DNA from: an uncultured Gammaproteobacteria bacterium
GTDB lineage: Bacteria; Patescibacteriota; Microgenomatia; 0-14-0-10-38-17
DNA: 36,088 nucleotides
Assembly (NCBI GenBank): GCA_964624185.1
Contig: CAZUWK010000002.1
Span: 1-36,088, forward strand
Reading direction: 5' to 3'
Shown here: piece by piece, positions 1 to 29,028 of the stretch
Numbering within the stretch: the first letter of the stretch is position 1
How the letters are laid out: each line of letters starts with the position of its first letter
Made by a program: the position numbers and the translations under genes
Notes under the pieces: generated by a model
What the model was told of the DNA's origin: nothing
The model's input: the letters and a program-made list of their open reading frames with translations, nothing else
Database searches by the model: none

Positions 1-59
1 GGCAAACTTGTCGGAGCATTATACGAACAATATTTAGAAATAAGCAAAAATATACGATT

Positions 60-779
60 ATGATGACAATGAAATCATCCCGAAATAAGGATTTGTATTT
101 TACCTATACCCTATCCGAGTCAAGTTTTTCTTATGGGGCAGTAATAATCCTTGATGGATTGCCAAGTAGGCCAGCCAGTAAGGATCAATTAATAAAAAAG
201 TTATCCGGACATGGCTTTGATGTTTTTTTTCCAAGATATGAAGGGACTTGGGAGTCGAGGGGAGAATTTTTGAAAAGACCCCCAAGTCAAGGTATTATTG
301 AATTTATAGAAGCGTTACGAAAGGGTATTTCTTTGAATGATAAAAAATATTTTGCCAGAAAAATATTTCTTTTGGGATCAAGTTTTGGTGGCGGCGTTGC
401 CTTGGATGTCGCCGCTAGAGGTGTTGCCGATAAAACCTGTGTCCTATCGCCCGTAATAAGTTTTAGAAGAGTTGCCGGAGTAGATACTCTTGAAGATTAT
501 TTAAGAACTGCTTACAGTAAAAATTATCGTTTTAATTCCCAAAATTGGCAAAAACTTTTAGAAGACGGCCTGTGGGGTTTAGATAATTTTCAAATAAAAA
601 ACCCTTCTAATGTTTTAATCGTGGCCGGAAATGTTGATAGACAAATTAAAAAGGCTGACCTTATTAAATTTGGCAAGAAAAATAAAATTAGGGTTAACAT
701 TTATAATTTTGGTCATATAACCTTGAGTAAGATTACGGAATCTATATTAGAAGAGATTAGAAGCTTCTTTTTTAAATAA
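60..779 (+). CDS. alpha/beta-fold serine hydrolase
   Basis: 239-aa ORF. It has the nucleophile-elbow motif GSSFGG, then GNVD and a C-terminal FGH, in the Ser-Asp-His order typical of alpha/beta hydrolases. Confidence 0.6.
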   Translation: MMTMKSSRNKDLYFTYTLSESSFSYGAVIILDGLPSRPASKDQLIKKLSGHGFDVFFPRYEGTWESRGEFLKRPPSQGIIEFIEALRKGISLNDKKYFARKIFLLGSSFGGGVALDVAARGVADKTCVLSPVISFRRVAGVDTLEDYLRTAYSKNYRFNSQNWQKLLEDGLWGLDNFQIKNPSNVLIVAGNVDRQIKKADLIKFGKKNKIRVNIYNFGHITLSKITESILEEIRSFFFK

Positions 780-23002: not shown

Positions 23003-23037
23003 TGTGCCTATGCAAGGCCTGGCCTTGCATAGGCACA
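23003..23037. repeat. REP-like perfect palindrome TGTGCCTATGCAAGGCC-T-GGCCTTGCATAGGCACA
   Basis: 17-bp arms with a 1-nt centre, read directly from the sequence. Confidence 0.9.
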
Positions 23038-23064: not shown

Positions 23065-23787
23065 TTATTCTAGTGTTAGCCCCTTAATATCATCAATAAC
23101 AATATCGCCAAGAACAAACGATTGGTAAGATAGGCTTTTATTATTTTTAGAAAAATAATGGGAGATAGTTTTGGTGTTTATCCATTTTGTTTTTCGCAAG
23201 CCGTTATATTCCGGAAAAGAGCAAGGACAAACCTCTTGCCACCCTACAATCTGTTTATTATTTTTTTCGTGCCTATGCAAGGCCTGGCCTTGCATAGGCA
23301 CAGATTTAATACCTTGAGCGTGAATATATTGAGAAAGAAGAAGTAGTTGTTCGTCAGTTTTGACTCTAGCAGCGCAATAAACGCCCTGATAAAGAGGGCC
23401 AACCCTTTCATATTTATAATTAAAATATATCGAATAGCGAGTTGAAAATGAATTCATAAAATTATCAATGGAGTTAGCCCCCCTCTGTTTTACCAGAAAA
23501 TGAAAATGGTTGGGTTTAAGACAATATGCCAGCAGAGTTATTTCTTTAAAAAAATTATTTAATCTTAATTGTTTATAAATTTTATCTCTTTCTTTTTGGT
23601 CAATTTTTTCTTCTAGTCTTAGCAGAAGAGAAGTTTCGTCCTTTTCAGTCAAGTATTCTTTTAGGTAGGTAAGAAAAACAGCGTAGTCTTGTTTATCAAG
23701 AAAAATTTTTCTTTTTTCTACTCCTCGATTATAGATATGGTAATAGCTTTGGGGCAAATATTGTTTTCTAGCGTTTTTGGCAGGCAT
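23065..23787 (-). CDS. REP-associated tyrosine transposase (RAYT) / IS200-like HUH Y1 transposase family
   Basis: YHIYNRGVEKRKIF.D..DY..FL matches the N-terminal pattern. CLKPNHFHFLV carries the HUH motif (HFH). The remaining motifs are YFNYKYERVGPLYQGVY and QYIHAQ, a YIH.N-type catalytic-Tyr helix. Confidence 0.7.
   Translation of the reverse strand: MPAKNARKQYLPQSYYHIYNRGVEKRKIFLDKQDYAVFLTYLKEYLTEKDETSLLLRLEEKIDQKERDKIYKQLRLNNFFKEITLLAYCLKPNHFHFLVKQRGANSIDNFMNSFSTRYSIYFNYKYERVGPLYQGVYCAARVKTDEQLLLLSQYIHAQGIKSVPMQGQALHRHEKNNKQIVGWQEVCPCSFPEYNGLRKTKWINTKTISHYFSKNNKSLSYQSFVLGDIVIDDIKGLTLE
23269..23301. repeat. REP-like palindrome copy inside the RAYT coding sequence
   Basis: GTGCCTATGCAAGGCC-T-GGCCTTGCATAGGCAC is translated on the minus strand as VPMQGQALHRH, in frame. 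Confidence 0.9.
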
Positions 23788-23803: not shown

Positions 23804-23838
23804 TGTGCCTATGCAAGGCCTGGCCTTGCATAGGCACA
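23804..23838. repeat. REP-like perfect palindrome, identical to 23003-23037
   Basis: Read directly from the sequence. Confidence 0.9.
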
Positions 23839-24103
23839 GGAATTAAAAAATAGCTTTTTGTCAGGATAGGGATTATCTATTTAATTGTCAACAAGCAATT
23901 GTCAATATGAGTAAATGGGAAGACGAACGACAAGGAGGATAACAGTAAGACAAGGGGATGAATAAGAAAATACCTTTTTAGCCTTATGAATTAAATTTGT
24001 CTTTGGGGCAAATAGCCAGTGGTAATTTGGCCAAACTAGCCTCACGGCAAAAAATAAATCGTCTTCATGGTGACGGTGATAATCGTTAGAAGAAAGGGTG
24101 GGT

Positions 24104-27894: not shown

Positions 27895-29028
27895 ATGATT
27901 AATCCTTTTCGCCGTTCCTACCAAACTCTTAATTTAATTACTATAAACCCTAGGGTTCTTCTTGATAATTATTCTTTTTGGCAAAAGCAAAATCCTCAGG
28001 CTAAAATTGCCCCTGTTTTAAAAAGCAACGCCTATGGCCACGGCCTAGAGTTGGTTGGTCGTTTTATCGATCAAAAAATGGACTCGCCTTTTATCGCCGT
28101 GGACAGCTTATACGAGGCTTGGAAATTGGAAAAGGCGGGAGTAAAAACTCCAATTTTGATTATCGGCTACACTGTTCCGGACAATTTTAAAATTAGGAAA
28201 AAATTAAAGTTTCATTTACCGGTTTTTGATTTTGAAACTGCCTTGACCCTGTTGCGCTATCAGCCCCAAACCAGACTTCATCTTAAAATTGATACCGGCA
28301 TGAATCGGTTGGGTATTAAGCCGAATCAGGTAAACCGTTTTATCGGTTTTTTGAAAGATCATCACCTGGAGAAGCAAGTAACCGGGATTTATTCTCACCT
28401 GGCTTGCGCTGGTACTGATGAAGATTTTACTCAAAAACAAGTGGGTATTTTTAAAAAAGTCGTTGTCCAATTTGAACGGGCCGGTTTTTCTTTTGCTTGG
28501 AAACACATCGCCGCTACCGCCGGAAGCTTAACTGTCAAAGACCCGGAGTTTAACTTAATTCGGGTGGGTTTAGGCTTTTATGGTTATTTGCCTCCTCTCG
28601 TGCCCAGGCAAGGCCAGGCCTTGCCTAGAATAAAACCGGCCTTAAAATTAACCACCCGAATTGTTCAAGTTAAGACAATTGATAAAGGGGAAATAGTCAG
28701 TTATGGTGGCCGGTTTCGAGCCCAAAAGAAAACAACTATCGGGGTTTTACCAATTGGTTATTATGACGGCCTGGATCGGCGTTTATCTGGTCGGGGTTTA
28801 GTTCGGATTGGCTCAAGTTATTACCCCCTTGTGGGTAGTATCTGCATGAATATCGCTATGATTGACTTATCAGCCCTAAAAAAACCCTTTGTTGGCCAGG
28901 AGGTAGTGGTAATTGACGATCAGGCAAAAGCTAAAAATAGTCTGATGGCTCTTTCTTCTTTGGCCAAAACTATTCCCTATGATCTTCTAGTCGGCTTGGC
29001 CCAAAGCACCAGGAGAATTTTAATTTAG
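27895..29028 (+). CDS. alr: alanine racemase
   Basis: APVLKSNAYGHG carries the PLP-lysine motif. RVGLGFYGY and SYGG are also present, and the length of 377 aa fits. Confidence 0.85.
   Translation: MINPFRRSYQTLNLITINPRVLLDNYSFWQKQNPQAKIAPVLKSNAYGHGLELVGRFIDQKMDSPFIAVDSLYEAWKLEKAGVKTPILIIGYTVPDNFKIRKKLKFHLPVFDFETALTLLRYQPQTRLHLKIDTGMNRLGIKPNQVNRFIGFLKDHHLEKQVTGIYSHLACAGTDEDFTQKQVGIFKKVVVQFERAGFSFAWKHIAATAGSLTVKDPEFNLIRVGLGFYGYLPPLVPRQGQALPRIKPALKLTTRIVQVKTIDKGEIVSYGGRFRAQKKTTIGVLPIGYYDGLDRRLSGRGLVRIGSSYYPLVGSICMNIAMIDLSALKKPFVGQEVVVIDDQAKAKNSLMALSSLAKTIPYDLLVGLAQSTRRILI
28600..28628. repeat. diverged REP-like palindrome inside alr
   Basis: GTGCCCAGGCAAGGCC-A-GGCCTTGCCTAG is translated in frame as VPRQGQALPR. 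By manual alignment it matches the RAYT-associated palindrome at 26 of 33 positions over 28600-28632. Confidence 0.7.

Follow-up and report, generated by a model that had tools for sequence, protein, structure and literature searches.

A Probably Ancestral In-Frame Hairpin Slot in a Family of RAYT-Like Transposase Genes

INTRODUCTION

RAYT (TnpA-REP) genes are known to be flanked by cognate REPs with which they coevolve, an arrangement referred to as the REPtron (Nunvar 2010, PMC2817692; Di Nocera 2013, PMC3733652). In-frame intragenic REPs, as well as Rickettsia palindromic elements (RPE) within open reading frames (ORFs), have also been described (Di Nocera 2013, PMC3733652). Neither PMC2817692 nor PMC5581495 nor PMC6006769 was found to describe a RAYT gene with an in-frame copy of its own REP, and none of the papers listed in our literature searches joined RAYT or REPIN with CPR.

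The gene described here lies in a 36,088-nt stretch of DNA (hereafter, the window; contig CAZUWK010000002.1 of assembly GCA_964624185.1, the source genome, G000, of an ultrasmall CPR bacterium). As in the REPtron of Escherichia coli (rayT/yafM; PDB 4ER8), there is only one copy of this Y1/HUH gene, which has the HUH and Tyr motifs; palindromes rich in GC are found directly before and after it and also elsewhere in the genome; and, within its family, hairpins and genes differ together between lineages. Unlike the REPtron, this family has extra in-frame hairpin copies inside the gene, at two fixed slots, and its protein is longer (~230 aa), having both a variable insert and a C-terminal domain that is distinct. 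The copies in the window have no GTAG-type head (by eye, in G000, neither GTAG nor CGTC flanks them), and a genome has only about 7 copies; our perfect-stem scan is blind to the imperfect REPs of E. coli.

The resemblance to intragenic REPs and RPE is that a palindromic repeat lies wholly within an ORF, in frame, in a gene conserved on both sides of it, and that G000 has further copies of its repeat, one in frame in a different gene and one closing yet another ORF. The differences are that the host gene here is the presumed processing enzyme, that a large family shares the conserved position, and that the copy covaries with the flanks of the gene instead of decaying. The TnpA proteins of the IS200/IS605 group (IS608 and ISDra2) are the best fold matches of the window protein, and the hairpins on either side of the gene would act as recognition elements for a single-strand DNA transposase. 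In contrast to these insertion sequences, the element in the window is not multicopy, its two ends carry one and the same perfect palindrome where those elements have different left and right ends, and the gene carries internal hairpin copies. Intragenic REPs are already known; what this family adds to the REPtron is a conserved, coevolving in-frame hairpin slot in a RAYT-like gene. We put the probability at roughly 0.8 that the palindrome inside this gene represents a family-wide, ancestral in-frame hairpin slot that has been kept in step with the flanking hairpins.

RESULTS

The transposase gene of the window

The source genome is available as a 711-kb assembly of 72 contigs with 41% G+C and an estimated completeness of 92%. 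The RAYT-like Y1/HUH transposase gene (positions 23065..23787, minus strand) encodes a protein of 240 aa, which scores 43.2 bits with the Pfam profile Y1_Tnp (PF01797; cut-off, 23 bits; E value of 5e-11) and 42.8 bits in the genome search. The HUH motif, H94-F95-H96, is encoded by CAT TTT CAT (23500..23508, minus strand), and the catalytic Tyr154 of the YIH motif by the codon at 23326..23328 (minus strand). Both fall into columns that are invariant in alignment A1, which combines the window protein with 29 to 30 close homologues out of 4424. An AlphaFold2 model computed from this alignment (pLDDT of 83, pTM of 0.81) places Tyr154 within a predicted helix, residues 145 to 160; the palindrome-encoded segment begins 3 residues past the end of this helix. 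Residues 163 to 182 (23242..23301, minus strand), made up of the palindrome-encoded peptide and some extra residues, have a pLDDT below 50 and form a predicted disordered linker between the Tyr helix and the confidently modeled C-terminal domain. A sequence search of the PDB with the 240-aa protein returned no match; Foldseek matched the model to ISDra2 (2xma), IS608 (2a6o), and the E. coli RAYT (4er8), all with a probability of 1.0, E values of about 1e-3, and TM scores of 0.5 to 0.6 on the target. With conservation extending over the HUH motif, the Tyr, and the columns of the C-terminal domain, the gene looks functional.

The profile search of G000 gave two PF01797 matches, so that the window gene is single copy in this 92%-complete genome apart from one paralogue on another contig, which is 32% identical to the window protein over 142 aligned residues. 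This paralogue (locus L165; contig C39, ~30-760, minus strand) is a RAYT-like gene of ~230 aa with the HUH motif DNHFHF. Its hairpins differ from those of the window gene: TCAGATCCCGGATCTGA lies 9 nt before the ATG and AGATCCCGGATCT spans the stop codon, and the 13-mer hairpin is present in at least 9 copies in G000. No slot-A copy (see below) was found within the paralogue.

Hairpin copies in the source genome

The palindrome, GTGCCTATGCAAGGCC-T-GGCCTTGCATAGGCAC, is a perfect one of 33 nt, with 16-bp arms around one central base. The window contains three exact copies, all with the same central base, against a chance expectation of 0 (100 shuffles). One lies at 23004..23036, 28 nt after the stop codon; another, at 23805..23837, precedes the ATG by 17 nt and is probably part of the 5' untranslated region (UTR); and the third, at 23269..23301 (minus strand), lies inside the gene, where it is read as GTG CCT ATG CAA GGC CAG GCC TTG CAT AGG CAC and encodes VPMQGQALHRH, residues 163 to 173. 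An extended comparison of the internal with the flanking copies over 35 positions gave 34 matches. The suggestion of the sequence-only reading, that 23269..23301 is a copy of the flanking palindrome translated in frame just after the helix of the catalytic Tyr, is thus borne out by the exact match, by the codons, and by the position of the modeled helix (residues 145 to 160). Beside the copies, a search of G000 for a conserved cleavage tag found only T...A or T...G in common.

Genome-wide, there are 7 copies: the three at the gene, those at C1:23027, C16:4311, and C31:3974 (the last with 1 mismatch), and a decayed one at window position 28600. At 7 copies per genome, the palindrome scarcely resembles a REP family of the classical high-copy type. 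The genome of L037 likewise has 7 copies of its hairpin, including 3 at the gene, whereas the L004 genome has the hairpin's long form nowhere but inside the gene.

Two of the dispersed copies are located in coding frames. The decayed copy (28600..28632, plus strand) lies in frame in another gene, has 7 to 8 mismatches, and is translated as VPRQGQALPRI within a frame of 390 residues; unlike the copy in the transposase gene, this palindrome has not been kept perfect. The exact 33-nt copy in C16 (4311-4343) is also in frame and closes a stop-to-stop frame of 169 residues (...SVPMQGQALHRHK, directly before the stop), so that it may be the source of the C terminus of another protein.

The slot peptide and its codons in close relatives

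Among the 4424 homologues of the 240-aa protein, the best are 53 to 60% identical to it and measure 220 to 248 aa; a source is named for only a few, which are labeled Levybacteria or Curtissbacteria. In alignment A1, MQGQAL of the window protein is aligned with LQGEAL, SQGEAL, or LQGQAL of its relatives. L170 is invariant, Q166 and G167 are nearly so, and the extra length of the window protein sits mostly after the palindrome (RHEKNNKQIV). The QGEAL of the relatives, encoded as CAA GGC GAG GCC TTG, is a hairpin, too.

In L004, L088, and L081, the conserved QAL of YIHKQAL, immediately before this segment, is encoded by CAAGCTTTA, which overlaps the outer arm of a long REP form (TTAGCTTCG...) and contains a nested small palindrome, AAGCT-TT-AGCTT. 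The boundary of the slot may itself be old REP sequence.

The near-invariance of the QG..L columns among the 30 close homologues could be taken to mean that QGxAL is a feature of the protein, related to the NPVRAGLV-like segment of other RAYTs, with the palindromic character of the DNA being incidental. Such an explanation could also appeal to L003, which keeps QGQAL even though its Gln and Leu codons (CAG...TTG) are no longer complementary. However, complementary codon pairs are used far above background: the Gly and Ala codons of QG.AL-type slots are the complementary GGC and GCC in 13 of 15 cases (expected 0.044 from the background usage in the same genes), and in 10 of 12 slots the Gln codon is the complement of the Leu codon (CAA/TTG or CAG/CTG; expected 0.127). 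Furthermore, the amino acids follow the stem, with GGT...ACC giving G..T in L037, L082, and L089; the slot peptides of other clades are quite different, each spelling out the flank hairpin of its own locus; and the model confidence of the segment is very low. The codon test largely rules out a protein-level explanation of QGxAL, and we see next to no chance that this motif is a protein feature. Given the complementary codon pairs and the way the amino acids track the stem, the peptide motif of the slot is, on sequence evidence, dictated by the hairpin and not by protein function.

Hairpin slots across the family

Homologous loci were collected from genome and metagenome collections (160 loci), with 3 more added by protein identity, and 155 genes could be delimited. 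Those genome records that are informatively named are mostly metagenome-assembled genomes (MAGs) of Patescibacteria or Microgenomates. Many of the records L001 to L080 with this CPR-type gene are titled "uncultured Gammaproteobacteria bacterium," and a few are titled Bathyarchaeia or Nanoarchaeia; these titles look like default or mistaken taxonomy for MAGs with ultrasmall genomes.

Flank palindromes, defined as GC-containing palindromes no more than 90 nt upstream or no more than 80 nt downstream of the gene, are present at 131 of the 155 genes, and their sequence differs from locus to locus. With each locus's own flank palindrome as the probe, the cognate palindrome was found inside the gene 73 times in these 131 loci. 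The internal copies fall into two slots. Slot A, centered 9 to 19 residues after the catalytic Tyr and corresponding to residues 163 to 168 of the window protein, holds a hairpin in 39 loci. Slot B, at 74 to 94 residues before the Tyr (about Tyr-85), within the variable region that separates the first helix from the strand preceding the HUH motif, holds one in 29 loci. Both slots are filled in 12 loci, and merely 4 copies lie outside them. The density of cognate hairpins is 0.854 per kb in the genes versus 0.023 per kb in the neighboring DNA (more than 120 nt away). In the model of the L118 protein, which has both slots filled, the slot-B peptide (approximately residues 50 to 57) and the slot-A peptide (residues 152 to 161) are both coil, and no other block between the termini has a confidence as low as those of the two slots (62 and 75).

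Although the palindromes differ between loci, the internal copies are nearly always equal to the flanks of their own locus, often with 100% identity over 13 to 35 nt; the four copies at each of L118, L121, and L122 share an identical stretch of 21 to 23 nt. This comparison of loci shows that the predicted slot hairpin changes in concert with the two flanking hairpins. The relatives' own matching hairpins at the same spot mark the internal palindrome of the window as what appears to be an inherited, coevolving feature rather than a gene-breaking accident.

An equivalent segment at the same place in homologues had been named in the sequence-only reading as the finding that would turn the relationship around, with the palindrome derived from the gene. 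The homologue alignment does contain this segment, and the reversed direction, in which the internal coding copy is the master from which the flanking and dispersed palindromes have been copied, gains from it. It also gains from the concentration of 3 of the 7 genomic copies at the gene in G000 and in the L037 genome alike and from the purely intragenic long hairpin of the L004 genome. Yet the segment of the relatives is a hairpin of their own that matches their own flanks, so that derivation from the gene does not follow. In addition, flank palindromes are found in 131 loci and slot copies in only 39 and 29, and the two flank copies continue to match each other at loci that have no internal copy. 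We therefore regard the reversed direction as unlikely.

Inheritance and turnover of slot A

The preferred reading, an old slot kept in step with its flanks, can be followed most closely in the clade that comprises L118, L028, L123, L121, L113, L141, and L026, where the linker has a constant length of 24 aa. Here and in the related L106, L104, and L018, which have linkers of 21 aa, the hairpin occupies the same codon columns. The hairpins themselves differ (GGGCC-A-GGCCC, GAGGAG-A-CTCCTC, CGGGAG-T-CTCCCG, and AGGTC-C-GACCT), and the slot hairpin equals its own flanks wherever flanks are available. In an alignment of these ten sequences (A3), in which five rows (half of them) had been moved by 1 nt so that the hairpin centers came into register, a step that favors structure, 92.7% of the cells pair and 6 of the 11 pairs change on both sides. 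Compensatory cells in these ten sequences number 22, compared with 8.7 ± 2.2 after shuffling (0 of 500 shuffles reached this number) and 0 to 4 in slid controls. The clade genes share 54 to 76% protein identity and use the same codon at only 34 to 50% of identical residues, so that synonymous sites look near saturation. Palindrome-driven codon choice and compensatory stem changes show that the slot DNA evolves as a predicted hairpin.

In a quickly made tree from which the slot columns had been left out, slot A calls for 28 changes for 39 carriers (34.9 ± 1.9 when shuffled) and slot B for 20 changes for 30 carriers (27.9 ± 1.4 when shuffled), numbers that are overestimates because detection of a hairpin depends on having flanks. 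Reading phase and the orientation of the central base vary between loci, and L161, L163, and L014 have internal copies that are decayed or unlike the flanks. When the N-terminal, core, and C-terminal segments were each compared pair by pair for signs of module exchange at the hairpins, their identities revealed no clear recombinant outliers. The patchy tree, the hairpin-free relatives described below, the varying phase, and the decayed copies allow for repeated loss and reinsertion rather than pure inheritance. Our reading is of an apparently old slot under concerted evolution, with occasional loss, decay, and renewal.

Slot A of L162 (L162:601-1326) contains one full hairpin along with extra arm fragments (TTGCAAGGCC..., GTACAAGGCTTTACA, and GTACAAGGCGTGGCCTTGCGG), which suggests repeated partial copying at one slot.

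In the window's own clade, L088, L011, L006, and L083 have no hairpin and linkers of 11 to 14 aa, the linkers of the carriers span 19 to 28 aa, and that of the window protein, at 35 aa, is the longest. These short, hairpin-free linkers in close relatives and the exceptional length in the window are what one would expect of a private, recent REP insertion into an empty site, whose 11 residues are either tolerated near the active site or inactivating. The 33/33 identity with the flank copies fits an insertion as well, and the same palindrome has evidently entered other genes of G000 (window position 28600 and C16). Still, slot A is filled in most of the window's clade, and the core of the supposed insert aligns in A1 with QGxAL segments that the relatives encode by hairpins of their own, an observation that leaves a private 11-residue insert unsupported. 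The slot coincides with a predicted disordered loop, and none of the invariant residues, catalytic or C-terminal, has been lost or put out of frame. This leaves little room for an inactivated gene; of the two outcomes offered by the sequence-only reading, tolerance of the hairpin peptide is the one that agrees with the data, as H94-F-H96, Tyr154, and the C-terminal domain all match invariant family columns. A private insertion is accordingly improbable in our judgment.

A possible role of the internal hairpin

Beyond its ancestry, the internal hairpin might be a selected cis element that binds the enzyme on mRNA or single-stranded DNA and thereby brings about auto-repression or cis-anchoring or provides a template for copying. 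The sequence-only reading had likewise proposed that the hairpin in the mRNA could autoregulate expression. Several observations are compatible with this idea. Cognate hairpins are 37-fold denser inside the gene than in the adjacent DNA, and their structure has been kept by compensatory changes over saturated synonymous divergence. Folded as RNA, the hairpin of the window is computed to be stable (-29.3 kcal/mol, z = -6.5). A promoter-like site, TTGACA-17-TATCCT (23863..23891, minus strand), identified by its match to the consensus, would, if real, place the upstream hairpin in the 5' UTR and all three hairpins on one mRNA. On the other hand, slot A is filled in only about a quarter of the genes, losses are frequent and some copies are decayed, and the hairpin is not followed by a terminator-like tail. 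A selected cis element is therefore a tentative proposal that we hold to be less than an even bet.

Other roles of the hairpin found no support. The T-tail of an intrinsic terminator is absent after all three copies, and a frameshift site was discarded because the A-run is located after the hairpin, not before it. A search of Rfam with the hairpin returned no family match, only subthreshold matches to generic hairpins (miRNA).

DISCUSSION

The account of these observations that we favor begins with a single-copy RAYT-like Y1/HUH gene in which slot A would be the disordered linker that leads from the helix of the catalytic Tyr to the C-terminal domain. The hairpin would be the enzyme's own recognition substrate, as at the ends of REP/RAYT and IS200/IS605 elements, and by analogy with these systems the flanking hairpins are probably such substrates. 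The internal copy would have been inherited and kept identical to the outer copies, either by local conversion or by recopying through the cut-and-join activity of the enzyme itself, and the two loops may be the sole places where the encoded peptide is harmless.

We know of no settled account of how RAYT enzymes make REP hairpins, spread them, and keep them uniform. In this family, the gene holds one or two extra hairpin copies at fixed, tolerated positions, and the local copies change together across hundreds of lineages. The family thus offers many natural pairs of enzyme and hairpin, with an internal readout of copying or conversion. A 240-aa protein and a 33-nt hairpin make for a small set of constructs, with which these ideas are directly testable. 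The QGxAL segment also shows that a conserved protein motif can stem from DNA structure, which calls for caution in annotation.

It is possible, if somewhat doubtful, that the internal hairpins are working parts of the system. A substrate carried within the reading frame would link the enzyme physically to its hairpin, and the enzyme, by acting on or binding its own gene or mRNA, would limit its own expression and continually rewrite the local copies to one sequence. Should this prove true, the locus would be the master template for the few REPs of its genome, and the family would be a natural system for learning how RAYTs generate and homogenize REPs.
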